From NCBI GenBank assembly GCA_900322105.1, contig ONYV01000012.1, positions 1,726 through 29,446 on the forward strand: a DNA stretch of 27,721 nt, written 5' to 3'. The stretch comes from an uncultured Eubacteriales bacterium. GTDB lineage: Bacteria > Bacillota > Clostridia > Oscillospirales > Acutalibacteraceae. This document shows, piece by piece, positions 430 to 25,138 of this stretch (the stretch's first letter is position 1; each line of letters starts with the position of its first letter). The position numbers were made by a program, and so were the translations under genes. The notes beneath the pieces are model-generated. The model was not told where the DNA came from and did no database searches. It saw only the letters and a list, made by a program, of their open reading frames with translations.

Positions 430-457
430 CCCGTTCGCAAAACGACACACATACAAA

Positions 458-494
458 AAAGACTGATGAACCAATTGCGGTCTCATCAGTCTTT
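458..494. terminator. Bidirectional intrinsic terminator between convergent genes
   Basis: Perfect 12-bp inverted repeat AAAGACTGATGA (458-469) / TCATCAGTCTTT (483-494), with an A run before and a T-rich run after. Confidence 0.8.
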
Positions 495-583
495 ATGTTT
501 TTCCTTATCAAACAAAGTCGGTTTTCAAACGGTCAGCCCTTTCCCTCATCATACAGGATAGGACGTACCACACGTCTGCATCA

Positions 584-1219: not shown

Positions 1220-1352
1220 TGTTTTCTTCCTTTACTTTTTTATAATAATGATAAGATGCGTCACGAACCGAAATTGGCGCACCCATAGAAAAGATATACA
1301 GAAAAGATAAATAAAACAGCGTATTTTGTACATAAGAAAACCAAAAAAAAAC

Positions 1353-1381
1353 TTTACAAATTGTTTTGAATGGTATATAAT
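1353..1381 (+). promoter_or_regulatory. sigmaA-type promoter for the XRE gene
   Basis: TTTACA (1353-1358), 17-nt spacer, TATAAT (1376-1381). Confidence 0.6.
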
Positions 1382-1458
1382 TTACATACTGTTTATTTTG
1401 ATCGATATGGTCGACTTATGCCCTTTTTTCAGAAAGCACAGTCACACCTTTCGTTATC

Positions 1459-1487
1459 ACTATAATATCTTTTGTAATTTTTGTCAA
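1459..1487 (-). promoter_or_regulatory. sigmaA-type promoter on the minus strand, facing the plus-strand promoter
   Basis: Minus strand reads TTGACA (1487-1482), 17-nt spacer, TATAGT (1464-1459). Confidence 0.5.
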
Positions 1488-1501
1488 GAGGGAGGTGCAT
1501 T

Positions 1502-2206: not shown

Positions 2207-2241
2207 AAAGCCGCTTCCATTATAAAGGATACGGCTTTTTT
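2206..2241 (+). terminator. Intrinsic terminator after the XRE gene
   Basis: AAAAGCCG (2206-2213) / CGGCTTTT (2232-2239) stem with inner TCC/GGA pairing, followed by a T run. Confidence 0.75.
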
Positions 2242-2253
2242 GTTGCCTTAAGC

Positions 2254-2293
2254 AAAAAATACCGTCCGCTGACATTCAAAGTGCAGCGAACGG
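2254..2293 (-). terminator. Intrinsic terminator for the CobW operon
   Basis: CCGTCCGCTG (2262-2271) / CAGCGAACGG (2284-2293) stem with one mismatch. The A6 at 2254-2259 gives the U tract on the minus strand. Confidence 0.65.
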
Positions 2294-2323
2294 CGTTTGT
2301 TTTTGTTGGCGTTTGTTTTTGTT
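2292..2323. repeat. Exact 16-bp tandem duplication
   Basis: GGCGTTTGTTTTTGTT at 2292-2307 and 2308-2323. Confidence 0.9.
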
Positions 2324-2384
2324 AAGGAATTCATATTAGACGGCAGCATTTGAGATACACATACACGCACCCTCTGACAAGGGA

Positions 2385-3338
2385 TTATGAAAAATATACG
2401 GTCTCTTCTTCAGGCTTCACTGCCGTTTTCACTTCGGTCACATACAGCATCGGACCTGTTTCACCGCCAAAAAGCGGATCACGCTCTGCCTTGATCTTTG
2501 CGGTGACGGTGTACCAGCCTTTGTTGGCAAGCGTTGAGGACTGATCCCATTTGCACAGGAAACCGACATAGCGGATATCCTCCACACAGCAGGTCATGGC
2601 AAACCGTCCGCCGACAAAGGTATTTGACGGCAGCTTGGGATTACGCGCCACCAGCGCCTTATACTGCACCGTTTTTCCGTCATAATCCTGCGGTTTGTCC
2701 ATTGCGTCCAAATACAGCAGTCCGAAATCCTCGTCCTTTACTTCGATCACGGGCGCATTTACATCGAACGGCAGCGGATCAACGATCTGATCGTTTTCCA
2801 CTGAACCGTCTTTGTACTCATACAGGATATTGGCGCGGCGGTTGATAGCACGGACGATGGTATGCAGCTTCATTTTGTCGATAGAGGCATCATAACGGTT
2901 AAAAAAGACGACCTCTGTTGCGCTGATCTTATCGTACACAAGCTGACGCATATTGCTGTTATACATATCGAATGTTCCTGAGTCCGCCGTCATCATGATC
3001 TGGAAGATCTGCCAGTTTTTCGGCAGCACCTGCGCTAAATCACTGAGCAGCCACATTCCGTTGTATTCGATCATGACCCTTTCAGCGCGCGCTTTTTTGG
3101 CGGCCTTTGACAGAAAATCTTCCGTCAGCTCGTCCTTGTCCTCTACCGTAACGATCGTGACATTTCGTCCGCCCGTATATTTGGAAGTGTCAAGTTCCTC
3201 CTCGCCTTCCTCACAGAGTACGACAAGGGTCTTTTCTCCTGTCATAAATTCTCTGTCACAGAGGTTTTCATGCATAAATCTTGTTTTGCCGCTGTCTAAA
3301 AAGCCCAAAAACAGATAGACAGGAATTATTTTTTCCAT
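2385..3338 (-). CDS. CobW/COG0523-like P-loop GTPase domain fused to a DUF1980/TIGR03943-like C-terminal domain
   Basis: N-terminal VYLFLGFLDSGKT Walker A, IEYNG and FNRYD. C-terminal YDGKTVQYKA...GRFAMTCCVED...KGWYTVTAKI resembles the soluble C-terminal domain of YcgQ-type proteins (recognised from memory, not searched). Confidence 0.7.
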   Translation of the reverse strand: MEKIIPVYLFLGFLDSGKTRFMHENLCDREFMTGEKTLVVLCEEGEEELDTSKYTGGRNVTIVTVEDKDELTEDFLSKAAKKARAERVMIEYNGMWLLSDLAQVLPKNWQIFQIMMTADSGTFDMYNSNMRQLVYDKISATEVVFFNRYDASIDKMKLHTIVRAINRRANILYEYKDGSVENDQIVDPLPFDVNAPVIEVKDEDFGLLYLDAMDKPQDYDGKTVQYKALVARNPKLPSNTFVGGRFAMTCCVEDIRYVGFLCKWDQSSTLANKGWYTVTAKIKAERDPLFGGETGPMLYVTEVKTAVKPEEETVYFS

Positions 3339-3375
3339 GACTCGTTCACTCCGTTTCCTATTCTTTCGTTCCGAT

Positions 3376-4488
3376 TCAGAACAGCTTTGACAGCGCTTCT
3401 TCGTTCAGCTTAGAGCCGATCACGCAGATCCTGCCTGTATAGTCTGCGCTGCCGCTGCGAACATCCGATTCCTCGGGAACATAGTCAAAGTGGATCCAGC
3501 TTCCGTCCTCGGCAGGAAGAATACCCTTTGCGCGCAGTACCATGCCGTAAGTTTCACTGTCCTCCAGCGCTTTCAGAATGGCTTCTACGCCCTCTTTGGT
3601 GTATTTCTTAGCCGTTTCTTTGCCCCAGCTGGTAAACACATCATCCGCATGGTGATGGTGATGATGATGGTGATGTTCATGCTCATCCTCGTCATGATCG
3701 TGGTGATGGTGATGCTCGTGTTCATCCTCGTCATGATCGTGGTGATGGTGATGTTCATGCTCATCCTCGTCATGATCGTGGTGGTGATGTTCGTGTTCGT
3801 CCTCGTCATGATCGTGGTGATGGTGGTGATGGTGACACTCACAGTCGGGGTCGTCACATTCTTCTTCATATACCACATCATCCACCGTCAGGAGTGCCTT
3901 GCCTTCGGTAGCGGCAAGGATCTGTGCGCCCGTCAGTTCATCCCAAGGTGTGGTTACGATTGCTGCCTTTTGGTTATGTTCTCTTAAAAGGGTGAGCGCC
4001 TGATCTAATTTCTCATCAGAAACATTCTGCGTTCTGCTGAGAATGATGGTGCTGGCGCTTTCGATCTGATTATTATAAAACTCTCCGAAATTCTTCATAT
4101 AGATCTTACACTTGGAAGCATCCGCTACTGTGATAAAACTGTTCAGCACGACTTCATCGCTTGCCACCGTTTTAACAGCGTTGATAACATCCGACAGTTT
4201 GCCCACACCTGACGGTTCGATAATGATCCTGTCAGGATGATACTGCTCCAGCACCTGATTGAGCGCCTTTCTGAAATCACCGACCAGAGAACAGCAGATA
4301 CAGCCTGAATTCATCTCATTGATCTGTATGCCTGCTTCTTTCAGAAATCCGCCGTCAATGCCGATCTCTCCGAATTCATTTTCGATCAGAACGAGCTGTT
4401 CGTTCTGATAACCTTCTTTGATGAGCTTTTTGATGAGCGTTGTCTTGCCTGCGCCTAAAAAGCCCGAAAAAATGTCGATCTTTGTCAT
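3376..4488 (-). CDS. COG0523/CobW-family metallochaperone GTPase with His-rich linker
   Basis: SGFLGAGKTT, IENEFG, SGCICCS (CxCC), IEPSG and a CobW_C-like C-terminus (VLRAKG...GRICVIG). Start moved to ATG 4488 (MTKIDIF), which follows a GGAAAGGAAGAG RBS. Confidence 0.92.
   Translation of the reverse strand: MTKIDIFSGFLGAGKTTLIKKLIKEGYQNEQLVLIENEFGEIGIDGGFLKEAGIQINEMNSGCICCSLVGDFRKALNQVLEQYHPDRIIIEPSGVGKLSDVINAVKTVASDEVVLNSFITVADASKCKIYMKNFGEFYNNQIESASTIILSRTQNVSDEKLDQALTLLREHNQKAAIVTTPWDELTGAQILAATEGKALLTVDDVVYEEECDDPDCECHHHHHHHDHDEDEHEHHHHDHDEDEHEHHHHHDHDEDEHEHHHHHDHDEDEHEHHHHHHHHHADDVFTSWGKETAKKYTKEGVEAILKALEDSETYGMVLRAKGILPAEDGSWIHFDYVPEESDVRSGSADYTGRICVIGSKLNEEALSKLF
3649..3834 (-). repeat. 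His/acidic coding tandem repeat inside the CobW gene
   Basis: 62 codons: H7-(DHDEDEHE)-H4-(DHDEDEHE)-H5-(DHDEDEHE)-H5-(DHDEDEHE)-H9; 38 His. Confidence 0.95.
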
Positions 4489-12003: not shown

Positions 12004-13461
12004 TCAGTATGCCTTCGGAATTTCTGTACAATCTGACGAAAAATCGTATTCATCGACACGCGCGCCGATGGTGGCTTCTGCGGCGATCTTTCCTTTGCTG
12101 TCGATATAGTATGTTGTCGGGTATGCCCGAAACGGCAGGATCCATTCCAAATTCTTCGGCGGCGTCAGGTTCAGATAATCACATCCTGCTGCGCTGAGGA
12201 GCGCTCTTGCTTTTGCCAAAGTTTCTTCGTCTGCCGCATCATAACAGATACCGATCAGCTGACAGCCCTTTGCTTCAAGATCCTTTGCTAATTTTGCAAG
12301 TTCGGGCAGCTCATTTTTACACGGTCCGCACCATGTCGCCCAGATATTGACCAGCGTCAGCTTATTCTTTGCAAACAGCTCGGCAACAGAAACCTGAACG
12401 CCGTCAAGATCGGTCGTTTCAAAGGCGCTGACCGTTTTTCCGCTGTTCAGATCAGCCGATGCGCCCGATTCAGGCTCGAAAAATTCAAAGCAGGAAAGCA
12501 TCCCGTCCCTGTTGTTTCTGACAGTCTGATACTCATCATAAAACGATCCCATCGACTTTTGAAGTGTCTGCTCCTGTTCTGCACTGCGGCACTGAACAAA
12601 ATAAAAATCCGTATTTCCCTTGGAATCTGCTTTTGAGAAATACTCGACTTCTCCTGCGCTGTAGTATTCGTTTGTCACAAAATCACGTACTTCCTTGGGA
12701 GAAACGCTGTTGTCCACAATAAAAACACTGCACACCTCTCCGCCAAGTTCTCTCCAATTTTCCCATGCCTCCACAGGCGGCTTTGGCAGATCCTGACCGG
12801 CATAATAGGCTTGTGTCCATGCGTTGACATATTCGGCAAAACTGCTCCACTGCTCTTTTGCAACGGCATAATAGCTCACTTCAAACACCTTGATAGCAGG
12901 ATCGCTCTCCTTGACTGTCTGCGCGCCAAAATTCAGAGAACCCGAAAGCGCCGTGTCAAAAGCATCGTTTTTCGTGAACTTGATGCCGAACTCTTTTGCC
13001 GTCACCGTTCTTGCGCTGTCATCGTCTGTATTGCTTTCCTCAGACTGCGGCGCCATATCCGACAGTATGATCTCCATTTCACCTGCTGTTTTTGGCGCAG
13101 TATATTCTTTTTCATCCTCTGCATAGCCTTCGGGTACTTTGAGAATATGTACTTTATAGTCGCCGTCAGGATAAGCAAAACCTGCCATTCCGTTTTCATC
13201 CGTCTTCTCCACCGTGCATTCGCCGTCCGAACAAAACTGTACCGTTACGCCCTTGACTGCCACTCCTGCCGGGTTTTTGACGACGACACGATATCCTTTC
13301 GTCATAACGGAAGGTTCTGTCATGGAAGTTCCGTCAGCGCCCGAAACTGCCGTATCATTTTTTGCTGCATCCGATGCCGTACCGTCCGTTTTACTGCCGC
13401 ATCCTGCCAGCAAAGCCACACACAACAGCATGGATATCAGCCCGCAAGTCCAACGTTTCAT
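12004..13461 (-). CDS. Lipoprotein with C-terminal TlpA-family thioredoxin domain
   Basis: Lipobox LLAGC; beta-sandwich-like segment (VTVQFCSDGECTVEKTDENG); uncharacterised middle; TLVNIWATWCGPCKNELP...AYPTTYYIDSKG. AAGGAG RBS. Confidence 0.88.
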   Translation of the reverse strand: MKRWTCGLISMLLCVALLAGCGSKTDGTASDAAKNDTAVSGADGTSMTEPSVMTKGYRVVVKNPAGVAVKGVTVQFCSDGECTVEKTDENGMAGFAYPDGDYKVHILKVPEGYAEDEKEYTAPKTAGEMEIILSDMAPQSEESNTDDDSARTVTAKEFGIKFTKNDAFDTALSGSLNFGAQTVKESDPAIKVFEVSYYAVAKEQWSSFAEYVNAWTQAYYAGQDLPKPPVEAWENWRELGGEVCSVFIVDNSVSPKEVRDFVTNEYYSAGEVEYFSKADSKGNTDFYFVQCRSAEQEQTLQKSMGSFYDEYQTVRNNRDGMLSCFEFFEPESGASADLNSGKTVSAFETTDLDGVQVSVAELFAKNKLTLVNIWATWCGPCKNELPELAKLAKDLEAKGCQLIGICYDAADEETLAKARALLSAAGCDYLNLTPPKNLEWILPFRAYPTTYYIDSKGKIAAEATIGARVDEYDFSSDCTEIPKAY

Positions 13462-13504
13462 TGTGTTTCACTCCTTTTGATGATATGAGGAACTCTCTTT
13501 GAAT

Positions 13505-13533
13505 ATCATACCTGTTTTTCTCTTCTCCGTCAA
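13505..13533 (-). promoter_or_regulatory. sigmaA-type promoter of the thiol-redox operon
   Basis: Minus strand TTGACG (13533-13528), 17-nt spacer, TATGAT (13510-13505). Confidence 0.7.
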
Positions 13534-13573
13534 GTGAGCCTGACGGACTTTCCGCAAAAGTCCGCTTACTATC

Positions 13574-13629
13574 AAAAATGCTTGAAAGTGACCTTTCCAT
13601 TGTGGGTAGAAAAGTCACTTTCAAGCATT
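13574..13629 (-). terminator. Long-stem terminator closing the Ter operon
   Basis: Perfect 16-bp inverted repeat AATGCTTGAAAGTGAC (13577-13592) / GTCACTTTCAAGCATT (13614-13629); A5 at 13574-13578 gives the U tract on the minus strand. Confidence 0.7.
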
Positions 13630-13640
13630 CACCATGATAT

Positions 13641-13664
13641 TTTTATATACTGTTTTATATACTG
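13641..13664. repeat. Exact 12-bp tandem duplication
   Basis: TTTTATATACTG at 13641-13652 and 13653-13664. Confidence 0.9.
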
Positions 13665-13715
13665 CTTAACTGTCACTGAATGGTTTGTCTGACATAACTT
13701 CGTTCTTCGCCTGTA

Positions 13716-14513
13716 CTATATAATAGGTATTTTTCTTGAGAGAATGCGGCATATTTCATCCGAAAAAAAGCCACTGACAGCATATCCCTGTTTGTTCTGC
13801 GGCATATAACCCGAAAGTGCGTCAGGATAGATCGAAATATCCGTTTCCTGCAGCATACTCAGATCAAAGCTGCTGTCCCCTGATGAGATCGTCCTGATAT
13901 CGCCCGTACCGACATTTTCTTCCCGAAGAAAAGACAAAAAGCGTTTCACTGCCGTCCCTTTAGACAGGATCGCAGGGAAGCAGTGCAGCTTGCTGCCGCT
14001 GTAAAAGACTTGAATGCCGTGCGGCGCAAAGGTCTTTTCTAAGTATTGAAAAAATGCAGGATCGTTTTCAGTTCGGGCGTATACCATATAAGTATCGTTT
14101 CGGTGAAGATGTTCCCTGCCTAAATGCTCCTGCATCACTTCATAGACCTTTTCTAAATGCGCTGCGGCAGGTTCGATCATTTTAAGCGTATCCCGTGTCC
14201 ACTGTTCGTTTTCTTCTCCGTTTTTCAGCAGCACAGCGCCGTTTGCGATCAGCGCATAAGAGTAAGACAGCTTTTCACGCAGCAGAAAGATCCGCTCATA
14301 CTGTTCACGATTTCTCGTGGTCAGCGGTACAAACAAATGTCCCTGACGTTCCGAAAAGCGCCGCAGGAATTGCAGCGTTAATTCTGTCATATAGCTTTGT
14401 TCCCTGCCCTGATAGTATTCTGCAAGGAGCTTTGGGGACGGGATCTCATGACGGTGTGAAAAGATGAGTGTATTGTCAAGATCGGTAAACCAGATGTTCA
14501 AGTTCTTCATCAT
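13716..14513 (-). CDS. HAD-superfamily phosphatase (Ter-associated type)
   Basis: FTDLDNTL (DxDxT), TTR, SKGTA, GDSSFDLSML. ATGA overlap with the upstream gene. Confidence 0.88.
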   Translation of the reverse strand: MMKNLNIWFTDLDNTLIFSHRHEIPSPKLLAEYYQGREQSYMTELTLQFLRRFSERQGHLFVPLTTRNREQYERIFLLREKLSYSYALIANGAVLLKNGEENEQWTRDTLKMIEPAAAHLEKVYEVMQEHLGREHLHRNDTYMVYARTENDPAFFQYLEKTFAPHGIQVFYSGSKLHCFPAILSKGTAVKRFLSFLREENVGTGDIRTISSGDSSFDLSMLQETDISIYPDALSGYMPQNKQGYAVSGFFSDEICRILSRKIPII

Positions 14514-15559
14514 GTATCAGCTAACCTTCGTATCAGTCCGCAGGCTTTATAGTGCTTGAAAGGATATATCTCCAGCTCTACCTGTTTTTCTTTGGCTAAC
14601 TGATAGATATGTCCTAAATAGCGGTCATCATCAAAGCTGTGGACTAAGATTTTCCACGGTATTCTTCGGAGCAGCACTCTGGTCGCTTCACCACTACCCG
14701 GTTTGATAAAGTTGATATCTGAGATCTGATACTGCTCCTTGATATTTTGTATTTCCTCTTGCGGCAGGAGATTCGTCTCAAACTGAGGACTGAACGCATA
14801 ATCACAGCCGAACTGTGCTTCCACTGCTGACAAAAAGGTTTCTGTCAGGTCGTCCTGCTCAAACTCCCGATAGTACGCAGCACCGTGAAAGTCATTTTCT
14901 CCGATGATATCAAAACGATAGAACGTTCTGCTAATCAGTCCTGAGACCGTCGCATTCAAACACGAACTCGGGATCAGAAAATCTTCATGCGTACCGCAGA
15001 TCCCTGCTGCATAGGCAGGATCAGACAGCACCGCTACGGTATCGTCCACTCCGGGAAAATCCTTCATTGCTTCTTTCAGCTGATTCTGTATAGCGCCCTT
15101 TCCTGTCCAGCCGTCCACAAACTGTATCTGCTCTTTTTGATGGCGGCTCAGGATGTAATTCATAGCATTTTTGTCGATACCCTTGCCTCTGATGATGGAG
15201 ATCGTATAGTGCAGGATATCGAGTCCGTATGTTTGCCTGAAATACCGTTTCAGCAGCACACCGACAGGTGTACCTGCCCTTGCCAGCGACACCAGCACAA
15301 CATTTTCTCCTTTCTTTCGGAGAATGTTCTCACAAAGAAGCTGCACCGCTTTCGCTGTCGGCGCAGCATATAGCGTCAGCGCTTTCAAAAACGTTTCCCG
15401 ATACTCTTTGCTTGGCAAATGTTCTTTCGGCAGCATTTCCGAATAATGCACGCCCGACTGTATTCTCTTTTCTCTTTCGCTGTTTTCCAGCGGTTCGACC
15501 ATACCGCTGATATCTTTCAGCAGCAATATCACTTCGTCTTTTTTATAACTGCTCTGCAT
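14510..15559 (-). CDS. StiP-like/PRTase-fold protein with C-terminal PELOTA-like domain (Ter-associated)
   Basis: LVSLARAGTPVG, FVDGWTGKGAI, DFLIPSSCLNATVSGLISRT, IKPGSGEATRVLLRRIPW; recognised by motif and operon context. Confidence 0.8.
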   Translation of the reverse strand: MQSSYKKDEVILLLKDISGMVEPLENSEREKRIQSGVHYSEMLPKEHLPSKEYRETFLKALTLYAAPTAKAVQLLCENILRKKGENVVLVSLARAGTPVGVLLKRYFRQTYGLDILHYTISIIRGKGIDKNAMNYILSRHQKEQIQFVDGWTGKGAIQNQLKEAMKDFPGVDDTVAVLSDPAYAAGICGTHEDFLIPSSCLNATVSGLISRTFYRFDIIGENDFHGAAYYREFEQDDLTETFLSAVEAQFGCDYAFSPQFETNLLPQEEIQNIKEQYQISDINFIKPGSGEATRVLLRRIPWKILVHSFDDDRYLGHIYQLAKEKQVELEIYPFKHYKACGLIRRLADT

Positions 15560-15562
15560 GGC

Positions 15563-16681
15563 TTATCCTCTAATCAAAAATATATTCTTACAGTGCGGAC
15601 GGAAGATTCCGCAAAGCTCCGTCATTGCTTTCTCTGTCTGCTGACGATCACGGTTGTCCGTTATGACGGCAACTGTATCGTAATCCTGAATGTTATACAG
15701 ATAATTCACCCGTTCTGCTTCGTAGAAGCTGTGGATACGGAACCCATTCTGACAGGGGTAATGCTCCGCTGTACTGATACCGATCGGACTTCTTGTGGCA
15801 GCGTGTGTAAACACAGCAGTGTCACGGCACTCATTTTCGATGAACCGTCCGGCAAGGATCGCAGGAGTCATACATTCCTCTGTCCCCAAAAACAGCAGTC
15901 TTCCGTGCAGCAAGTCACGTTCTTTGAACGCATCAAAAACGGCTTTTGAGAATACCGACATACGATCTTTCCATTCTTTGACAGACACCGCTTTTCTCAG
16001 GTCGGGTACAGACGCTGAAAGCATGATCTCCTGATAGTCACTGCTGAAAGACGTACATTTTTTTGCAGAAAACACTTCCATTGCCTTTGCAGCGGCTTCA
16101 AAATCACGGTCTGCCACTGAAACGAGAGAAACAAATTCAATGTTTTCAAGACGCATTCGCTCTCTGATCTCATCTTTCATGCGGTTGATAACAGAGCCGA
16201 TCACAAACCTTGTCTTTTGCAGATGAGGGAAACGAATGCGGAGCTGTGTGACGATATTTTCGATCGTCCTGCCTGTTGAGATCTCATCGTCGATCATCAC
16301 GATCGTTTGAGGATTACTTTCAGCGATCACCGTGCAGTCGATCTGCTGATCCACTGCGTGACTGTGTTCTTCTAAAAAACTGACGATATGAGCGGAAGTC
16401 AGCTTTTCTCTGGTGGTGTGCAGATAGCGCACATTTTCGGGAAACGCAAGAGATGCGACGGCAGCGATGGCGGTGGCTGTTTCTGCAAAGCCGATCACGA
16501 TCTCTGCGTTCTTAGCATTTTTATATAATATTTCTCCAAGGGAATAGGCTAAACGATAGGTCTTATCAGGTGAAACAGGGACGTGCTTTCCCTGCAGCGG
16601 ATCTACTAACAAGTAGCTGCGCTTTGTATTGTTGATTCTTTTGGCAAGCTGTAAAACGTCTTGTTCTGTGTATCTTTCCAT
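15563..16681 (-). CDS. Ter-associated phosphoribosyltransferase with C-terminal TRSP-like domain
   Basis: AKRINNTKRSYLLV, GFAETATAIA, HTTRE, PRPP-binding MIDDEISTGRT; C-terminal LGTEECM and ATRSPI. Confidence 0.85.
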   Translation of the reverse strand: MERYTEQDVLQLAKRINNTKRSYLLVDPLQGKHVPVSPDKTYRLAYSLGEILYKNAKNAEIVIGFAETATAIAAVASLAFPENVRYLHTTREKLTSAHIVSFLEEHSHAVDQQIDCTVIAESNPQTIVMIDDEISTGRTIENIVTQLRIRFPHLQKTRFVIGSVINRMKDEIRERMRLENIEFVSLVSVADRDFEAAAKAMEVFSAKKCTSFSSDYQEIMLSASVPDLRKAVSVKEWKDRMSVFSKAVFDAFKERDLLHGRLLFLGTEECMTPAILAGRFIENECRDTAVFTHAATRSPIGISTAEHYPCQNGFRIHSFYEAERVNYLYNIQDYDTVAVITDNRDRQQTEKAMTELCGIFRPHCKNIFLIRG

Positions 16682-16685
16682 TTCC

Positions 16686-17693
16686 TTACTCCTGCGTAAT
16701 GATCAAAGGTCGTTCCAGATAGGCGATCTTGGTTTCTTTTTTGCTAAGGTGCCAGTCTTTTTCAGCGCCGATCAGCTTTGACACGGCGATATCGAGGATA
16801 TTGATCTGTTCGGCATGACACGCCAGCGGCACTCCGCCCGACATTCTGGTATTCACTTCCAGCAGATACGGCACGTCACACAGATATTTGAACTGGATAT
16901 TAAACGGCCACTGCAGCGGAAACCGATCCATAAAGTCACTGCACATTTTCAGGATATCCTCCTGAAAAGAAATGCGTTCGGTACGGGTACTGCCTTTGAA
17001 ACGAGGGATCATGATCCTGCCCTTTGCTGTTGACAGACAATCTACGCTGACTTCTTCGCCGGGCAGATAGGGCATCACGATCAGCGGCGCAATCTTTTCA
17101 CGTTCGGAAAGGGCACTGACCGCTTCTTCAAACGTGATCTTTCCAAAACGATTTCTGAACAGGGACGCATACCCCTTTGCCCTGTCATCGATCAGCCGAA
17201 AGCTGAGTCCCCCCTCGTCAAATTCAAACTTGAAGCATACTTGTGAATAGTCCTTCTTCAACTGACGGTAAGCCGTCACAAACTCTTCTGCGTTTGTCAC
17301 TTTGAAGTATGGCGGGATATGGATGCTCCGGATATCCTTCAGACACTCATACGTTTTTGTTTTGCAGCTCAAAGGCTCTATCAGATCATAGTCATCCACC
17401 ATCACCGAAACGCCCAGCGCTTCAAAATCTTTTTTGTGGCGGCTGACGGACAAAAACTGCCGTCTGGGGATAAAGATATCCACCCGATGCGTTCTGCAAA
17501 AGTTCAGACAATACTGAATGTACTCTGTTTCACTTAGCACAGGCTCTTGGTACCATTCGTCACATACCGCCCTGTACACTGCGTTTTCTTTATCGTTGCT
17601 GCCGATGATATAATACTCCCGATCGGCTTGTTTCAGCATCTCGATCATCAGATAGACGGTGCTGAACCAGTGATTGAACCAAATCCGTTTCAT
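16686..17693 (-). CDS. ATP-grasp enzyme (Ter-associated type)
   Basis: WFNHWFSTVY N-terminus, MPYLPGEEVSVDCL, FNIQF, LLEVNTRMSGG. Confidence 0.85.
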   Translation of the reverse strand: MKRIWFNHWFSTVYLMIEMLKQADREYYIIGSNDKENAVYRAVCDEWYQEPVLSETEYIQYCLNFCRTHRVDIFIPRRQFLSVSRHKKDFEALGVSVMVDDYDLIEPLSCKTKTYECLKDIRSIHIPPYFKVTNAEEFVTAYRQLKKDYSQVCFKFEFDEGGLSFRLIDDRAKGYASLFRNRFGKITFEEAVSALSEREKIAPLIVMPYLPGEEVSVDCLSTAKGRIMIPRFKGSTRTERISFQEDILKMCSDFMDRFPLQWPFNIQFKYLCDVPYLLEVNTRMSGGVPLACHAEQINILDIAVSKLIGAEKDWHLSKKETKIAYLERPLIITQE

Positions 17694-17700
17694 GCTGATC

Positions 17701-19782
17701 TCACTCTATCTCCACTCCGAAGCTCTCGCACAGGGCTTTGAGTTTTCCGTTATAGCCTGCCCCGACTGCTTTCAGCTTCCATATTTCTTTATTCTTATAC
17801 AGCTCCACACCGACCAGACATTTTTCCTGATTCAGATGTTTTAGTTCGATGTGAAAGAGTTCTTTATTGTCTGCAATGACTTGTATCACAGGATTTTTGA
17901 CCATAGTAAAATTCAGTCTGCTGTCATCTCCATAGGCGGAGAAGCAAACAGACACTTTTTCATACTGACTGCTGACTTTTTTCGGCAGGATAAAGACAGA
18001 AGGCTTATCCATCAGCATTTCCGGTTCTGTATAGACAGCGCCGTCTGCGGAGCGTTCGTTTCCGAAAAAGATCAGATCCTTGTCATTGGTGACTTTTCCG
18101 TCTGATGCCAGCATAAAGGCATAGCCGTCAAGGTCGATATCCCCTGAAACACCGTCACATTCAAGCCGTATCTCCAATGTTTTTCCGACATATTCCTGAA
18201 TATTGATCCTCTGTCCCAAAGACAGCTCCCGTCCCGTTTTGGGAACAGACTTTTGTTTGCTGTCGGTATATTTCGTCACGCTGCTGCCTGACAGCGGCGC
18301 AGGTTTCATCATAGGATCAGTGCCGCTAACGGACAAGGGCATTTCAAAGCTGTTGTCATCGCTAAGGTCGGCAGCTTCGATGCCTGCTAACTGTTCATCC
18401 GTCCATCTGCTGTTTTTAGCAAGGCGGTTCGCTTGTCTTGCCACTGCTTTTTCAAAATAATTCCGCACATCTCTGCCGTTTGCAAAATTCTCATCACGGT
18501 TTTCATACAGCCGCTCAAAATCATTCTTTGCCCTGACCCTTGCTTTTGCGGACAGGTGGTAGCCCTGCCCTTTGCACATTTTTTCAAAGATCTCCAGCAG
18601 TTCATCGGGCTTATAGTCCTGAAAATTGATGTATTTGTTGAATCGTGACTGTAATCCGGGGTTAGAAGAGATAAACTGCGTCATCAAGTCAGGATAACCT
18701 GCCACGATCACGATCAGGTCGCTGCGGTGATCCTCCATACATTTCAGCAGGGTATCCACCGCTTCCTGACCGAAATCCTCACCGTTCTGACTTCTTGTCA
18801 GCGTATAGGCTTCGTCGATAAACAAAATGCCGCCCAGCGCCTTTTTCACTAACTTTTTGACTTTCAGCGCCGTATGTCCGACATATCCGCCGACCAATCC
18901 TGCACGATCCGTTTCGATCAGATGTCCTTTGGAAAGTACGCCTAAGCGGTAATAGATCTTGGATACCAGCCTTGCGACCGTCGTTTTGCCTGTACCCGGA
19001 TTGCCGTAAAACACCATATGCAGTGACATAGGCAAAGACTTCATCCCTCTTTGCTGACGAACCTGCTGCATCTTCACCATGTTGATCATAGTGTTGACAT
19101 CTTTCTTTACTTCTTTGAGTCCTGTCAGATCGTCAAGTGTCTTCAGCAGTTCTTCGAGTGTCTCCGTCACTTCTGTTTCCACCTTGACATCGGGTTCTGT
19201 ATCGTCATCCTGCTCATCAGGCGTATTTGCGCCGCCCCTTGAAGGGGTAAAGCAGCTTTTCAGATCCAGTTCCTGAGTTTCTGTCTTAAAGTTCAGGCTG
19301 CTGATAATATACTGCTGCATCTTTTTCAGAAATCCGTCCGTATAGTCCAGTGTTTCCTGAGAAATGCTGCTGACAGACCGAAACAGCTCATCTGTAATCT
19401 GGAACAAAACAAGATACATCATCTGTGAGATCGGAGTGGAAAATCCTTTGTTTTTTTTTCGCATCTGATTGTCAAGATCAATAAAGTTCGTCAGCAGTTC
19501 CAGACGGTAATGTTTCAGATTGCTTTTCATGGTATATTCATTGGCAAGACGTTTCAGGTTTTCCGGTGTTGCGCCGAAATCAAAGTTTTCCTGTACAAAT
19601 CGTGCGGCTTCCTTTGGGTTCAGATCCGTATGAAGGAGCAGATACCCGATATATCCTTGGATCTCTGTTTTGAGCGCCTGACGATAGGTATTGTACGTGC
19701 TTCTCGGAGTCATGGGAAGTCTGTCCGCCTGATCGCAGATCTCATATAAACTATTGACGTTTTCCTGTACTGTTTTATCCAT
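17701..19782 (-). CDS. CbbX/SpoVK-like AAA+ ATPase fused to a C-terminal TerD-like domain
   Basis: HMVFYGNPGTGKTTVAR Walker A, ILFIDEAY Walker B, SRF, FANGRDVRN; C-terminal LSLGQRINI...LIFFGN...VELYKNKEIWKLKAVGAGY...LCESFGV. Start at ATG 19782 after AGGAG, not 19887. Confidence 0.88.
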   Translation of the reverse strand: MDKTVQENVNSLYEICDQADRLPMTPRSTYNTYRQALKTEIQGYIGYLLLHTDLNPKEAARFVQENFDFGATPENLKRLANEYTMKSNLKHYRLELLTNFIDLDNQMRKKNKGFSTPISQMMYLVLFQITDELFRSVSSISQETLDYTDGFLKKMQQYIISSLNFKTETQELDLKSCFTPSRGGANTPDEQDDDTEPDVKVETEVTETLEELLKTLDDLTGLKEVKKDVNTMINMVKMQQVRQQRGMKSLPMSLHMVFYGNPGTGKTTVARLVSKIYYRLGVLSKGHLIETDRAGLVGGYVGHTALKVKKLVKKALGGILFIDEAYTLTRSQNGEDFGQEAVDTLLKCMEDHRSDLIVIVAGYPDLMTQFISSNPGLQSRFNKYINFQDYKPDELLEIFEKMCKGQGYHLSAKARVRAKNDFERLYENRDENFANGRDVRNYFEKAVARQANRLAKNSRWTDEQLAGIEAADLSDDNSFEMPLSVSGTDPMMKPAPLSGSSVTKYTDSKQKSVPKTGRELSLGQRINIQEYVGKTLEIRLECDGVSGDIDLDGYAFMLASDGKVTNDKDLIFFGNERSADGAVYTEPEMLMDKPSVFILPKKVSSQYEKVSVCFSAYGDDSRLNFTMVKNPVIQVIADNKELFHIELKHLNQEKCLVGVELYKNKEIWKLKAVGAGYNGKLKALCESFGVEIE

Positions 19783-19838
19783 ACGTTCCACTCCTGTCTG
19801 ATCGTCAAGGCAGCTTTTTGCAGTGACGGTTTTTACAC

Positions 19839-19882
19839 AAAAAACAGAGCAGAAATCATATGGTGAATTTCCACTCTGTTTT
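19839..19882 (-). terminator. Operon-internal intrinsic terminator between terD and the AAA-TerD gene
   Basis: Minus strand AAAACAGAGTGGAAAT-10 nt loop-ATTTCTGCTCTGTTTT-TT: 16-bp stem (two G.U pairs) whose 3' arm ends in a U6 run. Confidence 0.7.
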
Positions 19883-19913
19883 ATCATTAGACTTCCTCGG
19901 GAACCGGAGAAGT
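19882..19913 (+). repeat. Palindromic short repeat, copy 1
   Basis: TATCATTAGACTTCCTCGGGAACCGGAGAAGT; 29/32 identical to 24071-24102. Confidence 0.85.
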
Positions 19914-19935
19914 CTATTGTTTTGAAAAGGATCCG

Positions 19936-20526
19936 TTACCGAAAACGGTTTGCGATCTCGTGAACGCTCTGATCCTGTGTTGCCTGACCGATGGCGTTGA
20001 ACTTCCATGCGCCGTTGTGACGGTAAAGCTCACCGAACACCATTGCTGTCATGCCATTGTAGTTCTCGTTCAGATCATATTTGCACAATTCCTGACCGTT
20101 GTCATCACAGATACGGATAAAGGCATTCTGGAGCATTCCGAAATGCTGTCCTCTTGCTTTCGCCTGGAAAATATTAACAACAAACACGATCTTGTCATAA
20201 ACTTTAGGCAAGCGCTGAAGGTCAACTGCGATCTGTTCGTCATCGCCTTCACCCTCACCCGTCAGGTTATCGCCCATATGACGGACAGTGCCGCTTTCGT
20301 GGGTCAGATTTCCGAAATAGATCATATCGGCGCTGGATACGAATTTTCCGTTTTGCAGCAGAAGAGCTGTTGCGTCACAGTCTATCTCCTGAGTATTCTT
20401 TTTCAGGAAAAATCCCTTCGTCTGCTTGATCTCATCCCAGCCAAGACCTACCATAACTTTTGTCAGATCGCCGCCGTTTGATTTACGGAGTTCGACCTTC
20501 TGTCCTTTTTGCAGATTCACTGCCAT
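19936..20526 (-). CDS. terD: TerD-family stress protein
   Basis: MAVNLQKGQKV, VGLGWD, IYFGN, HMGDNLTGEGEGDDE acidic Ca-binding motif, ELYRHNGAWKFNAIG. Subfamily (TerD/TerZ/TerE) not resolved. Confidence 0.88.
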   Translation of the reverse strand: MAVNLQKGQKVELRKSNGGDLTKVMVGLGWDEIKQTKGFFLKKNTQEIDCDATALLLQNGKFVSSADMIYFGNLTHESGTVRHMGDNLTGEGEGDDEQIAVDLQRLPKVYDKIVFVVNIFQAKARGQHFGMLQNAFIRICDDNGQELCKYDLNENYNGMTAMVFGELYRHNGAWKFNAIGQATQDQSVHEIANRFR

Positions 20527-20557
20527 GAAATCACCTCTTTTAGGATGCCGATGACAA

Positions 20558-21136
20558 TCAGACGTTTACGCCAAAGTTCTGGCAGAGCGCATACAAACCG
20601 CCCTGGAAGCCGCTGCCGATGGCATTGAATTTCCATTCGCCGTTCATGCGGTAAAGCTCGCCGACGACCACTGCTGTCTCGATCGAGAAATCTTCGCCGA
20701 GGTCATAGCGGATCAGCTCTGTGCCGTTTGCCTGATCCATAATGTGGATATAAGCGTTGCTTACCTGACCAAAGTTCTGACGGCGTGCTTCTGCATCGTC
20801 GATGGTAACGGTGAATGCAATCCTGCTGATGTTCTGGGGAACGAGAGCCAGATCGATCTTGATCACTTCGTCATCGCCATCGCCTGCACCTGTTCTGTTG
20901 TCGCCTGTATGCTCAACAGCGCCGGAAGCGTGCTTGAGGTTGTTATAGAATACAAAATCTGCATCGCTGAATACTCTGCCGTTATCACCGCAAAGGAAAG
21001 CCGCAGCATCCAGATCGAAATCAGCAGAACCATCGTACTTGTTGGTGTCCCAGCCAAGACCAACGAAGATCTTTGTAAGACCCGGATTGGATTTTGTCAG
21101 ATCTACTTTCTGTCCTTTTGATAAACTTACTGCCAT
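20558..21136 (-). CDS. terD: TerD-family stress protein
   Basis: [66 protein letters not shown]. Subfamily not resolved. Confidence 0.92.
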
Positions 21137-21174
21137 GATGAATTACCTCCTGAAATTGAATTGATTATTTTCAG

Positions 21175-21192
21175 CAGAACCCTTCGGTTCTG
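21175..21192 (-). other. Stem-loop without U tract between the ATPase and terD
   Basis: CAGAACC / GGTTCTG perfect 7-bp stem, 4-nt loop (GAAG on the mRNA strand), starting 4 nt after the ATPase stop codon. Confidence 0.55.
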
Positions 21193-21196
21193 TGAT

Positions 21197-23824
21197 TTAC
21201 TGTTTGGAAATTGCTTTTGTGATTGCCTTGCGGATCATGTCGATCGGAATGACCATGATAGAGATGCCGATGCAGATCAGCCAGTGGAGCGGCTCAAGAG
21301 CGTGTACGTTCAGGAAATCGCCGCCGAAGGTCACGAAAATAAACTGCATTGCAAAGATGATGAACATGACAATGAGGAACGTCTTGTTTCTGCCAATGTG
21401 TTCAAAGACATTGATGTGTTCTGTGCGGGCGTTGAAGCCGTTCCAGCTGATCGCCATCATAAAGGTCGCAAACAGCGCCGAGCAAAGGTAGACAGGTCTG
21501 CCGTCAGAAGCTAAGATATTGGCAGAATCGCCGAACCAGCCCGACATAAACGGAATAAAGAGGATGCCCAGGCACACAAAGGTGATATAAAGCGCGCTGA
21601 TGAGAATCTGAACGAACATCTTTTTGGTAACGATGCTTTCCTTTCTGGGGACGGGTTTGTCTTTCATATATTCCTTCAAAGCAGGTTCGCTGCCGAAAGC
21701 AATTGCGGCAAGAGTGTCCATCGCAAGGTTAATGAGCAGAAGCTGAACGACTGTCAGCACAACGTTGACGCCCATCAGAGGGCCTAAGAAGCAGATCAGC
21801 ACAGCCGCAACGTTGACGGTCAGCTGGAAGATCAGGAACTTTCTGATGCTCTTGAACATGGTTCTACCGTAAAGGATCGCTTTTTCGATCGAGAGGAAGT
21901 TATCGTCAAGGATCGTGATGTCGCCTGCTTCCTTGGCGACCTCCGTACCGCTGCCCATTGCAAAGCCGACATCGGCTTTTTTCAGCGCAGGCGAGTCATT
22001 CACGCCGTCACCTGTCATGCCGACTACATATTCCATTTCCTGCGCCACACGCACCAGACGGCTCTTGTCCGTCGGCAGCGCACGGGAAACGACTCTCAGG
22101 TGCGGCATGATCTCTTTGAGCTGATCGTCTGTCTTTTCGGCAAGTTCTGCGGAAGTGAGGGCTACGTCCTGATGAGATTGTAACAGTCCGGCTTCCTTTG
22201 CGATCGCCACAGCGGTCTCTTTTCTGTCGCCTGTGACCATCACGACCTGAATGCCTGCATTCTGCACTTCTCTGATCGCATCCACGGCTTCCTTACGCAC
22301 GTTATCACGGATGCTGAGCACGCACACAAGGGTCAGATCACCTTCTGCGTGATCTCCGAGTGCCTTTGCAACGGCTAACAGTCTCATGGAACGTCCTGCC
22401 TGCGTATCCATATAGGATGTCAGGTAATTTCTCTCTGTCAAAGGCTTGGTCGTGCCGTTTTCGTCAATATAGTGAGTACATCTTTCGATGATCTTTTCGG
22501 GCGCACCCTTGATGTATGTCATACTGCTGCCGTCCTTGATGACGGTGACGCTCGAATACTTCTTTGCGGAATCGAATGCATCAAAGGACTTGACTTCTTC
22601 CTTTGACATTTTGTTGACTGCATCGGATTCCATCAGAAACGCCATCAGTGCGCGGTCTGTGCTGTTGCCGCCGATAATCGCGCCCTCGCTGGCAACAGCG
22701 CCGTTGTTGATGCCGATCCCTGTGATGACATCGAACATCAGGCTCTTATTCATTTCAGAGAGTTTCTGATACACCTTTACATTGCCTGTGGCAAGCTCTA
22801 CAACAGACAGCTTGCCTTCGGTGATCGTACCTGTCTTGTCGCTGAACAGCAAACTCAGACTGCCGGCTGTTTCCAAGCCGTTTATCTTGCGGACAAGAAC
22901 GTTGTCCTTTGCCATTCTCAGACTCTGGAAGGACAGCAGGATCGAAGTCAGCATCGGCAGACCTTCAGGTACTGCGCAGACGATGACGGTGACGGCTACG
23001 GTGATCGCATCCAGGATCAAACGGAGCCATCCGAAGAAATCTGTCGGGATATTGCCCGTGAGCAGTGCTTTGAGCAGAACGGCAATGATGATCGCCGCTG
23101 CGCCGATATAGCCAAATACGGAGATCTGCTTAGCGAGCTTTCCGAGCTTGACCTGAAGCGGCGTTTCTCTGGTGTCCTCCTGAACTTCCAGCGCAAGCTG
23201 ACCGAACAGGGTGGTATCACCTACGTTGTCGATGCGGATATAGCCTTCGCCGCCGCATACGACTGTGCCTCTGTATGCGTAGAATTTGTTCAGCAGGTCT
23301 TTTTTGTCAAATGATTCGTTGTTTTCGTTCGGGTGCTTTTTAGCTTCTTCTGTTTCACCGTTCAGGGCGGACTGATCGACCTTGATCTCGCCCTCAACGA
23401 CCACGCCGTCCGCAGGGAACTTGTCGCCTGCCTGAACGAACACGATATCACCGACAACGACTTCGCTGACGTGGATCTCCTTCAAAGCGCCGTTTCTCAG
23501 CACCTTGGCGGTCTCCTTTGCTTCCTCTTCCTGTTTCAGAGCGGAAGCCTTGTTTTCCTGACGGTATTCACTGATGGAAGATACACCGTTTGCGATAAGG
23601 ATCGCGATCAATACACCGACAGGCTCAAACCATTCCGCCTGTCCGATACAAACCAGAACGACCTGCACAACCAGTGCAACCAGAAGGATCATGATCATCG
23701 GATCCTTGAAGCCCTCCAATATTTTTTTCCATAGCGGATCAGGAGGAATCTGCGTCAGTTCATTAGAACCATGTTCCTCTCGGCTTTTGAGTACCTGCTC
23801 ATCTGTCAATCCTTGCAGTTTCAT
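21197..23824 (-). CDS. P-type ATPase, PMCA-like (P2B) probable Ca2+ pump
   Basis: DKTGT phosphorylation site, VCAVPEGLP (TM4), MVTGD, MTGDGVNDSPAL, FLIFQLTVN (TM5), INLAMDTLAA (TM6). AAGGAG RBS. Confidence 0.9.
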   Translation of the reverse strand: MKLQGLTDEQVLKSREEHGSNELTQIPPDPLWKKILEGFKDPMIMILLVALVVQVVLVCIGQAEWFEPVGVLIAILIANGVSSISEYRQENKASALKQEEEAKETAKVLRNGALKEIHVSEVVVGDIVFVQAGDKFPADGVVVEGEIKVDQSALNGETEEAKKHPNENNESFDKKDLLNKFYAYRGTVVCGGEGYIRIDNVGDTTLFGQLALEVQEDTRETPLQVKLGKLAKQISVFGYIGAAAIIIAVLLKALLTGNIPTDFFGWLRLILDAITVAVTVIVCAVPEGLPMLTSILLSFQSLRMAKDNVLVRKINGLETAGSLSLLFSDKTGTITEGKLSVVELATGNVKVYQKLSEMNKSLMFDVITGIGINNGAVASEGAIIGGNSTDRALMAFLMESDAVNKMSKEEVKSFDAFDSAKKYSSVTVIKDGSSMTYIKGAPEKIIERCTHYIDENGTTKPLTERNYLTSYMDTQAGRSMRLLAVAKALGDHAEGDLTLVCVLSIRDNVRKEAVDAIREVQNAGIQVVMVTGDRKETAVAIAKEAGLLQSHQDVALTSAELAEKTDDQLKEIMPHLRVVSRALPTDKSRLVRVAQEMEYVVGMTGDGVNDSPALKKADVGFAMGSGTEVAKEAGDITILDDNFLSIEKAILYGRTMFKSIRKFLIFQLTVNVAAVLICFLGPLMGVNVVLTVVQLLLINLAMDTLAAIAFGSEPALKEYMKDKPVPRKESIVTKKMFVQILISALYITFVCLGILFIPFMSGWFGDSANILASDGRPVYLCSALFATFMMAISWNGFNARTEHINVFEHIGRNKTFLIVMFIIFAMQFIFVTFGGDFLNVHALEPLHWLICIGISIMVIPIDMIRKAITKAISKQ

Positions 23825-23897
23825 AATTTTCTCCTTTTTAGCCCGAAGCGTTAGTGTTCCACTCCTTCAAGCTCAAGTATTGTATCTGATATTTCAA

Positions 23898-23926
23898 ATT
23901 ATACAATAGTTTTCCAATTACGTCAA
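23898..23926 (-). promoter_or_regulatory. sigmaA-type promoter of the Ter operon
   Basis: Minus strand TTGACG (23926-23921), 17-nt spacer, TATAAT (23903-23898). Confidence 0.8.
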
Positions 23927-24070
23927 GCAATTGTCGTCAAACACCGACAAAAACATAATAAAAATCACATAAAAGATATGGATCTCTCCAAAAAATAGGA
24001 TCTCTCTGCCTGATTTATGAGATCGGATAGAATTTCTGTCACATTTGATTTTTTTGACGCATCCTGACAA

Positions 24071-24102
24071 TATCAACAGACTTCTTCGGGAACCGGAGAA
24101 GT
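24071..24102 (+). repeat. Palindromic short repeat, copy 2
   Basis: TATCAACAGACTTCTTCGGGAACCGGAGAAGT; core ACTTCT-TCGG-GAA-CCGG-AGAAGT is self-complementary with one G.U pair. Confidence 0.85.
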
Positions 24103-24185
24103 GCCGTATTACGCAGGATATTTTGTGCCGGAAAAAGCGTCTCGAGTGCAGCACTGCTTGGTGTCATGCAAGGGAGAGACACAAA

Positions 24186-24224
24186 GTAAGACGGTGCTTC
24201 GGAAGTTTCCAAGGAAGTCTAATG
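24186..24224 (-). repeat. Degenerate inverted copy 3 of the short repeat
   Basis: Reverse complement of 24205-24224 (CATTAGACTTCCTTGGAAAC) matches 19885-19904 at 18/20. Reverse complement of 24186-24220 matches 24078-24112 at 25/35. Confidence 0.65.
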
Positions 24225-24252
24225 AATTCTGTACAACAAAGCAATAAAGATA

Positions 24253-24281
24253 TTGACAGATATCGTCGAAAACAGTATAAT
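24253..24281 (+). promoter_or_regulatory. Consensus sigmaA promoter of the acyltransferase/GT8 operon
   Basis: TTGACA (24253-24258), 17-nt spacer, TATAAT (24276-24281). Confidence 0.85.
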
Positions 24282-24352
24282 TTATGATAGAATTTTTGTG
24301 TTTACCAATCAGTGCATGAAATTTGAACGATTCTCTTTCAGACGGAGGAACA

Positions 24353-25138
24353 ATGGATAAACGTAACATTATATATTATACAGACGAGCTGAACGACGAA
24401 TTTTCGACCGCTCAGATCGAACCGAAAAAGATCGATGAAAACTATGTGTATCTTCATCATTCTCTTTTTAAGCGCTTTACCCATTTCTTTTGGTATCGTA
24501 TCATCGCCACGCCGATCGCTTTTCTGTATGTCAGGTTTACCTTTCGACAGAAAACCATAGGACGCAAGGCTTTTTCAAAGTGCAAGGACAGCGGCTATTT
24601 TATGTACGGCAACCATACACAGGTCGTGGGCGATCCTTTTATTCCCAATATCATTAACTTTCCGAAAAACGACTATATCATCGTCCATCCCAACAATGTG
24701 TCGATCCCCGTTTTAGGCAAAGTCACCCCGTCTTTGGGCGCTTTGCCCATCCCTGACGGAAAGGCCGCTTTCAAAAACTTCAACGAAGCCATTGAAACAC
24801 ATATCAAACAAAAGCACGTTGTGGTGATCTACCCCGAAGCCCACATCTGGCCGTACTATACCAAAATACGCCCCTTTCCCGACACTTCTTTTACTTACCC
24901 CTGTAAGCTCAGCGCTCCTGTCTACTGTTTTACCAACACTTACCACAAGCCGAAGTTCGGCAAACAGCCAAAGATCATCACCTTTGTAGACGGTCCCTTT
25001 TTCCCCGACCCGGAACTTCCTCTCAAACAGCGCCGCAAAAAACTGCGGGATACGGTTTATGAAACCATGTGTGAGAGAGCCAAATCTTCGGATCACGAAC
25101 AGATCCGCTATATCAAAAAGGAAGAAGATCATGATTGA
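24353..25138 (+). CDS. PlsC-like (LPLAT superfamily) acyltransferase
   Basis: GNHTQVVGD catalytic block, LGALPIP, IYPEAH block. Start at ATG 24353 after GGAGG. Confidence 0.8.
   Translation: MDKRNIIYYTDELNDEFSTAQIEPKKIDENYVYLHHSLFKRFTHFFWYRIIATPIAFLYVRFTFRQKTIGRKAFSKCKDSGYFMYGNHTQVVGDPFIPNIINFPKNDYIIVHPNNVSIPVLGKVTPSLGALPIPDGKAAFKNFNEAIETHIKQKHVVVIYPEAHIWPYYTKIRPFPDTSFTYPCKLSAPVYCFTNTYHKPKFGKQPKIITFVDGPFFPDPELPLKQRRKKLRDTVYETMCERAKSSDHEQIRYIKKEEDHD

Follow-up and report, generated by a model that had tools for sequence, protein, structure and literature searches.

Ter loci are widespread, with links to stress, gut fitness and resistance to phages and colicins, and the mechanism behind them has been elusive for decades. 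Here we analyze a Ter-type operon of eight genes in a stretch of 27,721 nucleotides (nt) from an uncultured Eubacteriales bacterium (GenBank assembly GCA_900322105.1, contig ONYV01000012.1, positions 1,726 to 29,446 of the forward strand; hereafter the window), following up a prediction made earlier from its sequence. Among the closest described systems are the Ter systems of Anantharaman, Iyer and Aravind (2012) with their biosynthetic module, which we take as presented in later papers (PMC11994780, PMC7824862, PMC8115787). In that presentation they resemble the present locus in their TerD paralogues, their enzymes, a C-C lyase, a TelA gene in the genome and a product that is unknown. The enzymes have been predicted to make a nucleoside-like product (PMC8115787, PMC7824862, PMC11994780), and the same papers agree with the original prediction that its identity is not established. 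The present locus differs from the systems so presented in that TerC, YceG and canonical TerB were not found, in that the lyase and TelA genes are unlinked, in that a calcium pump leads the operon, and in that a fusion of TerB-like, AAA and TerD domains stands between the TerD genes and the enzymes.

Two further sets of loci are close to it. The Bacillus ‘cluster 2’ ter loci carry three terD genes, a terC-type gene, the biosynthetic module, yceG and yceH/telA (PMC11994780). Like the present locus they are chromosomal loci of Firmicutes with tandem terD genes ahead of a module of lyase, phosphoribosyltransferase (PRTase), StiP and HAD genes, but they have TerC, YceG and an adjacent TelA, and they lack the pump and the AAA-TerD fusion and, in the strain described, also the ATP-grasp gene. 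In two loci of gut Clostridia (L032 and L043; Ca ATPase, three TerD, rhomboid, YceG, TelA), a calcium pump likewise lies beside TerD paralogues with the calcium motif, and the locus ends with an AAA-AAA-TerD fusion whose TerD domain also lacks the calcium loop. These loci differ from ours in having YceG, TelA and the rhomboid gene within the operon, and in a fusion with two AAA modules that keep both arginines in each. The Ter system and its biosynthetic module are already known, and the uncharacterized part is the AAA-TerD fusion.

Gene content and boundaries of the operon

The window comprises nearly all of one contig (C207) of a draft genome of 1.78 Mb, which is 79% complete and is divided into 340 contigs. 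DNA nearly identical to it is found in bovine gut metagenomes from 11 studies. The locus lies on the chromosome of an uncultured rumen Clostridia bacterium and is a stress locus of the Ter type. Eight open reading frames fill the minus strand from 13716 to 23824. The domains of each were confirmed with Pfam and NCBIfam, every one of them exceeding the curated cut-off, and the genes follow one another in the order PMCA-type Ca ATPase, terD1, terD2, AAA-TerD fusion, ATP-grasp, PRTase-TRSP, StiP-PELOTA and HAD. The original prediction had named these eight genes, with their domains and positions, and was borne out, as it was for the packing of the last four junctions (7, 4 and 3 nt of spacing, then an overlap of 4 nt).

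It had also held that both ends of the operon are visible. A promoter-like site upstream of the ATPase gene (23898-23926, minus strand; TTGACG and TATAAT separated by 17 nt, 11 of 12 consensus positions) and an intrinsic-terminator-like hairpin 3' of the HAD gene (13580-13626, minus strand; a 20-bp stem with a T tail) fit that claim. The gene content can be called complete for the transcription unit only, and not for the system, as the lyase and TelA genes are on other contigs.

A proposed three-module Ter system

The best explanation of our combined findings, to which we assign a probability of roughly 0.55, is a Ter system of three modules: a calcium module, the fusion protein and a biosynthetic module. 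We infer this mechanism from gene content and not from experiment, which applies alike to the transport and binding of calcium, the chaperone role, the kind of metabolite and the coupling of the modules. The promoter-proximal genes would form the calcium module, with the pump as a predicted Ca2+ exporter and TerD1 and TerD2 as predicted Ca2+ binders. In the fusion, a degenerate TerB-like head and an acidic linker would precede a CbbX-like AAA+ ring, and a TerD domain predicted to be unable to bind calcium in the canonical way would follow it. The protein would act as a chaperone of narrow substrate range or as an ATP-dependent switch; its TerD and TerB-like ends may tie it to a TerD assembly, to a small-molecule ligand, or to both. 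The biosynthetic module (ATP-grasp, two PRTase-type proteins and HAD, together with the C-C lyase on another contig) is predicted to make a ribose-linked metabolite from phosphoribosyl pyrophosphate (PRPP).

The calcium module

P-type ATPases of the P2B group are Ca2+ exporters. The pump of the window (21197-23824, minus strand; 875 residues) is a PMCA-type (P2B) protein that scores 620 bits against TIGR01517, for which the cut-off is 507 bits, and this is the only P-type model in NCBIfam whose cut-off it exceeds. It carries DKTGT at residue 329, PEGL at 286 and GDGVND at 605, and its ion-site residues (INLAMD in M6, QLTVNVAAV in M5) are, like those of M4, of the PMCA type. This motif set is that of a one-site PMCA pump, for which Ca2+ export is predicted. 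The dephosphorylation motif of the A domain reads NGET where TGES is usual, with the Glu retained (residues 155-158, window positions 23350-23361).

The next two genes encode TerD paralogues of 192 residues (TerD1, 20558-21136, minus strand; PF02342, 287 bits) and 196 residues (TerD2, 19936-20526, minus strand; PF02342, 235 bits). TerD1 has a canonical calcium loop and TerD2 the loop GDNLTGEGEGDDE, so that the acidic pattern GDNxTGxGxGDDE is retained in both. TerD is a calcium-binding protein (Pan et al. 2011; Daigle et al. 2015; both as cited in PMC8123226). A fourth TerD of the genome, at positions 1-639 on the minus strand of contig C290 (L004), is without the calcium loop and runs into a low-complexity tail rich in Pro, Ser, Thr and Gln that reaches the contig edge.

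The fusion protein

When read from its first ATG, the fusion gene occupies 17701-19887 on the minus strand, and Pfam identifies AAA, AAA_lid_6 and TerD domains in its product, in agreement with the AAA+-TerD fusion of the original prediction. We rejected the ATG at 19887 as the start because it falls within a repeat hairpin and lacks a ribosome-binding site. At 19782 an ATG is preceded by AGGAG and marks the point from which homologues align, and we therefore take the fusion to be a protein of 693 residues that is separated from terD2 by 153 nt.

The AAA+ module with its lid (18358-19173, minus strand) aligns to CbbX, the activase of red-type Rubisco, at 221 bits (3ZUH, 3SYL), with about 50% identity over 249 residues. 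Features shared with CbbX are the Walker A lysine, Walker B, the pore-loop tyrosine, the GY motif, the equivalent of R194 and the lid helix FANxRxxRN...RQANRL. In the fusion Walker A reads GNPGTGKT, Walker B ILFIDE and the second region of homology NPGLQSRF, with the Asn upstream of the arginine pair present; in CbbX numbering K80 (Walker A), Y114 (pore loop) and R194 are retained. From these residues the module is classed in the CbbX/SpoVK/EccA clade of classical AAA+ ATPases. With the NCBIfam models for CbbX and SpoVK it scores 270-305 bits, which is under the equivalog cut-offs, and it is therefore an orthologue of neither. It also differs from CbbX in its TerB-like N-terminal domain and added C-terminal TerD, and in a glutamine that single-AAA members carry at the position of R192. 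Members of the clade are described as narrow-target chaperones (PMC11513918). The target of the fusion is certainly not Rubisco.

The C-terminal TerD domain (17704-18228, minus strand; Pfam TerD, 108 bits) is without the calcium-binding loop. When aligned to the TerD of K. pneumoniae (2KXT), the loop is deleted, shortened and non-acidic, and it is missing from 11 of 11 fused TerD domains, those of the window protein and 10 homologues. The original prediction had inferred a calcium-responsive sensor of pump and TerD, linked by an AAA+ remodeler to the enzymes; that the fused TerD is part of such a sensor is not supported, since its loop is gone. TerD paralogues without metal binding are already known. 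A complex prediction for TerD1, TerD2 and the fused TerD scored 0.01 and is uninformative about binding either way.

The N-terminal part of the fusion (residues 1-172 of 693; 19267-19782, minus strand) is a helical domain, modeled by AlphaFold 2 with a pLDDT of 84, which is followed by the acidic linker. Several lines of comparison point to TerB. First, its top 11 fold matches in the AlphaFold database include three TerB-named clusters and one DjlA-N (probability 0.91-1.0, TM 0.30-0.66). Second, 107 relatives of the domain came out of a profile search against 1.84 billion representatives; 97 of these were scanned, and 19 weakly matched Pfam TerB (PF05099; E ≤0.01), which made it the most frequent family among them. 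Third, the consensus of the relatives contains the TerB-like motif SASDGxIxxxE, of which the window protein keeps a degenerate form only. The fusion protein itself gave no direct match to Pfam TerB, and a direct Pfam scan of the N-domain family gave no consistent family. Structural searches with the model found nothing in the PDB at E ≤0.001 with Foldseek, generic helical matches only in the wide VIA-align search (Z up to 6.2) and, in the ESM Atlas, one unnamed Bacillota cluster by shape and none by features. Canonical TerB (PF05099) was not found in the source genome, nor at 1e-8 in 150 genomes of the class. The N-domain is probably a degenerate TerB-like domain.

Among its relatives, one metagenomic protein of 357 residues (P0125) joins a TerB-like N-domain straight to TerD without an AAA module, and in about 14 others the N-domain is attached to one AAA module and TerD is absent.

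The biosynthetic module and its unlinked partners

The always-present Ter core (PRTase_2-TRSP, StiP/PRTase_1-PELOTA and HAD) and the optional ATP-grasp gene lie in one packed run on the minus strand. It begins with a Ter-type ATP-grasp ligase of 335 residues (16686-17693; PF15632, 110 bits) that has the E-x-N motif in LLEVNTRMSGG, and continues with a PRTase_2 and TRSP phosphoribosyltransferase of 372 residues (15563-16681; PF15609 and PF12500) whose PRPP loop is IVMIDDEISTGRT. These are followed by a StiP (PRTase_1-like) and PELOTA_1 protein of 349 residues (14510-15559; PF11202, 342 bits, and PF15608, 100 bits) and by a HAD-IIB phosphatase of 265 residues with motif I DLDNT (13716-14513; NCBIfam).

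The original prediction had listed the lyase, TerC, TelA and YceG as missing and had proposed a search for them in the rest of the genome. Two of the four were there. The gene for the TIM-barrel C-C lyase (PF15617, 388 bits, about 380 residues) is intact outside the operon on contig C210, where it has its own extended -10 promoter, and TelA (235 bits) is intact on contig C315, unlinked to the operon. Both contigs share with the window a 24-nt palindrome that is specific to this genome, which supports their assignment to the same organism. TelA is also present, and unlinked to the cluster, in all six cluster-carrying genomes of the genus, this one included. The claim stood for TerC and YceG, which were not found, YceG in none of these six genomes, of which one is 99% complete. 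Thus the gene set is less unusual than it first appeared.

Conservation among related genomes

The fused type of TerD is carried by 6 of the 70 species of the genus, including that of the window, and the same gene order is found in the five others. All four same-genus loci of sufficient length have pump, TerD, TerD, fusion, (ATP-grasp), PRTase-TRSP, StiP-PELOTA and HAD. The layout is therefore not unique, and related layouts occur in other gut Clostridia. In the same four loci the lyase gene directly follows HAD in convergent orientation, with a gene for a pyridoxal phosphate (PLP) enzyme next in three of them; in the window a thiol-redox operon follows HAD instead, and the lyase and PLP genes are on C210. 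The locus has therefore been rearranged rather than reduced, and a single window is not sufficient for calling a Ter locus “reduced”. On the other side, a divergent operon of GT8 and acyltransferase genes lies upstream of the cluster in the window, in the three same-genus genomes that reach this flank and in a metagenome locus (L028).

The genes of the operon diverge at different rates. Identity among the same-genus species is 88% for the pump, 86% for TerD1 (84-88% against the same-genus copies), 80% for StiP-PELOTA and 78-80% for the lyase, and it falls to 63-70% for the fusion, 60-72% for ATP-grasp, 57-60% for PRTase-TRSP and 49-59% for HAD. Relaxed constraint and diversifying selection would both fit these differences. 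In one same-genus species, whose genome is 99% complete, the ATP-grasp gene is cleanly absent (L054; L041 10373-10480), leaving 107 nt between the fusion gene and PRTase-TRSP.

Beyond the genus, the fusion belongs to a metagenomic family that recurs. A search of 5.8 billion proteins returned two groups of it, almost all of them nameless: proteins of about 670 residues that combine a single AAA module with TerD and share 51-62% identity with the window protein, and proteins of about 986 residues that have two AAA modules and TerD. Eight types of fusion neighborhood were sampled. The fusion adjoins TerD paralogues in all eight, the Ca ATPase is present in five or six and the biosynthetic module in six, and YceG, TelA, a rhomboid or a TerD-vWA protein is retained in some. 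A sample of 400 genomes of the same order yielded no other full-length fusion, and neither did collections of 50,697 phage and 72,556 plasmid records. A literature search, for which the 2012 source paper of Anantharaman et al. was outside reach, found no description of the AAA-TerD fusion or of its TerB-like head.

The locus in rumen RNA libraries

Contigs from four rumen metatranscriptome libraries, belonging to four studies, cover the operon from 13687 to 23847 at 95-100% identity, and thus the locus is probably used in its natural habitat. The end of the longest contig, 23847, is downstream of the promoter-like site, and one contig spans 19507-23847, from the pump through terD2 into the fusion gene. 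Near the ends of the operon, the bins 13300-13670 and 23688-24058 have little or no cover in some runs.

The gap between terD2 and the fusion contains a 24-nt palindrome, GACTTCCTCGGGAACCGGAGAAGT (19889-19912), which folds as a hairpin and resembles repetitive extragenic palindromic (REP) elements. A 32-nt repeat here was considered as a locus-specific regulatory element and rejected, since the element is dispersed. Within 3 mismatches GACTTCCTCGGGAACCGGAGAAGT has 63 copies in the 1.78-Mb genome, and its reversed control has none; besides the copy in the gap, the window contains one at 24078-24101 and an inverted partial one at 24205-24225, with 60 in other places. The element also precedes the unlinked lyase gene and recurs on the TelA contig. 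RNA contigs tend to break at the copy in the gap, as repeats lead one to expect, and their depth falls from the terD2 side to the fusion side of it. At 24059-24400 the summed depth of the RNA libraries is 220 to 4400, as against 5 to 105 over the operon, and loose contig ends and small joints are numerous at 24115-24191. The high depth in this stretch likely comes from REP copies that attract contigs of many loci.

Weighing the alternatives

Several observations weigh against the three-module reading. The equivalent of CbbX R192 is Gln in every single-AAA member that we compared, whereas double-AAA proteins have Arg there in both modules. An arginine four residues after the conserved Asn is described as the first arginine finger and reported to be required in SpoVK (PMC11513918), so that full motor activity of the single-AAA fusion is uncertain. 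The matches of the N-domain relatives to Pfam TerB are weak (E-values 1e-4 to 1e-2), and solved TerB-like folds align to the N-domain with a Z of 4.8, within the noise of helical bundles. TerC (PF03741) was not found in the 79%-complete source genome or in the five other cluster-carrying genomes of the genus, one of them 99% complete, although assemblies that are incomplete do not establish absence. Moreover, the modules are separable, as one variant locus (L042) has pump, TerD, TerD and fusion without the enzymes, and another has TerD proteins, enzymes and fusion with no pump nearby. Finally, contig depth is 4-9 times higher over the pump and terD genes than over the fusion and the enzymes in all four RNA libraries, although the depth of contigs reflects expression poorly and RNA libraries can contain DNA. 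DNA contamination alone would be expected to give even depth, and the step hints at a higher level of expression of the calcium module. Together with the 153-nt gap and its REP hairpin, it suggests that the calcium module and the rest may be regulated apart.

These last points are also what speaks for the alternative that survives best, namely two unrelated neighboring units, a calcium-homeostasis operon of pump, TerD and TerD and a separate operon of fusion and enzymes, with no shared pathway. The modules stand apart in other lineages, and the unequal rates (86-88% identity for the pump and TerD1, 49-72% for the fusion, ATP-grasp, PRTase-TRSP and HAD) would suit such a division. Yet the fusion carries a TerD domain of its own and adjoins TerD paralogues in every neighborhood type sampled, one RNA contig extends from the pump gene across terD2 and reaches into the fusion gene, and no good internal promoter was found, the best site within the operon matching 9 of 12 consensus positions. 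We consider two unrelated units unlikely.

Still less probable, in our view, is a conflict system directed against phages or plasmids, in which a nucleotide-like alarm signal produced by the enzymes would be sensed by the TerD and TerB-like domains, with the pump and AAA+ protein carrying out the response. Ter loci have been linked to phage and colicin resistance and their PRTase and HAD enzymes proposed as signal makers (PMC7824862, PMC8115787), and TerD has been proposed to bind specialized nucleotide derivatives (PMC7159879). The fast evolution of the fusion, ATP-grasp, PRTase-TRSP and HAD genes, the patchy distribution in the genus and the integrase that adjoins the L042 variant would fit such a role as well. 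However, the locus matches no system in PADLOC-DB 2.0, where weak scores to generic AAA (IetA, 39 bits) and PRTase (17 bits) models were obtained; as Ter loci have no model there, this negative is compatible with a defense role. Its chromosomal neighbors are the same in the three other same-genus genomes that reach the upstream flank and in L028, unlike a typical defense island, no full-length fusion was found in the phage and plasmid records, and no nuclease or other obvious effector is encoded in it.

Least probable of all is tolerance of metals or metalloids, in which TerD and the pump would handle a cation other than calcium (e.g., Mn) or oxyanion stress and the enzymes would supply a metabolite that protects or chelates. 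The name of the family refers to tellurite resistance, which in Acinetobacter is reported to require StiP (as cited in PMC11994780), and the A-domain motif of the pump is atypical (NGET rather than TGES), but the pump exceeds, among P-type models, the PMCA equivalog cut-off only and has PMCA-type M4, M5 and M6 residues, solved TerD binds calcium (Pan et al. 2011, as cited in PMC8123226), and a search for TerC, which Ter systems usually have as their membrane partner, did not find it.

A possible ligand-gated chaperone

The three-module reading admits a more specific form, by analogy with CbbX. CbbX is switched on by a sugar bisphosphate. The fusion might likewise be a ligand-gated chaperone, switched by the phosphoribosyl metabolite of its neighbors and remodeling an assembly of calcium-bound TerD and the pump. 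The metabolite would then be sensed through the calcium-blind TerD, the TerB-like head or the conserved lid. We regard this form as speculative and improbable as it stands; if true, the fusion would join a small-molecule signal to calcium handling.

The presence of a probable TerB-like domain, a CbbX-like AAA+ module and a calcium-blind TerD in one polypeptide argues that TerB, TerD and an ATP-driven chaperone share a complex. The fusion offers a soluble, purifiable handle for the search for ligands and clients, and the repeated pairing of a calcium pump with TerD in gut Clostridia makes the calcium hypothesis of TerD function directly testable.

Variant TerD loci

Two other loci show further arrangements. 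In L042 (3033-12322), a phage-type integrase is followed by the pump, TerD, TerD and the fusion, and then by zinc-ribbon and C-type-lectin-domain proteins in place of the enzymes. Same-genus species without the fusion have a different TerD cluster (L023, G018:C2, 4483-18632). It begins with TelA, an SNF transporter and four TerD genes in tandem; a small radical-SAM (Fer4_12) protein and two family-less proteins come next, followed by a protein of 535 residues with a weak TubZ-like C-terminal match and by a triple-AAA protein of 1184 residues of the SpoVK/CbbX clade. The presence of this triple-AAA protein in a TerD cluster constitutes a second, independent link between TerD and the SpoVK/CbbX clade of AAA+ proteins.

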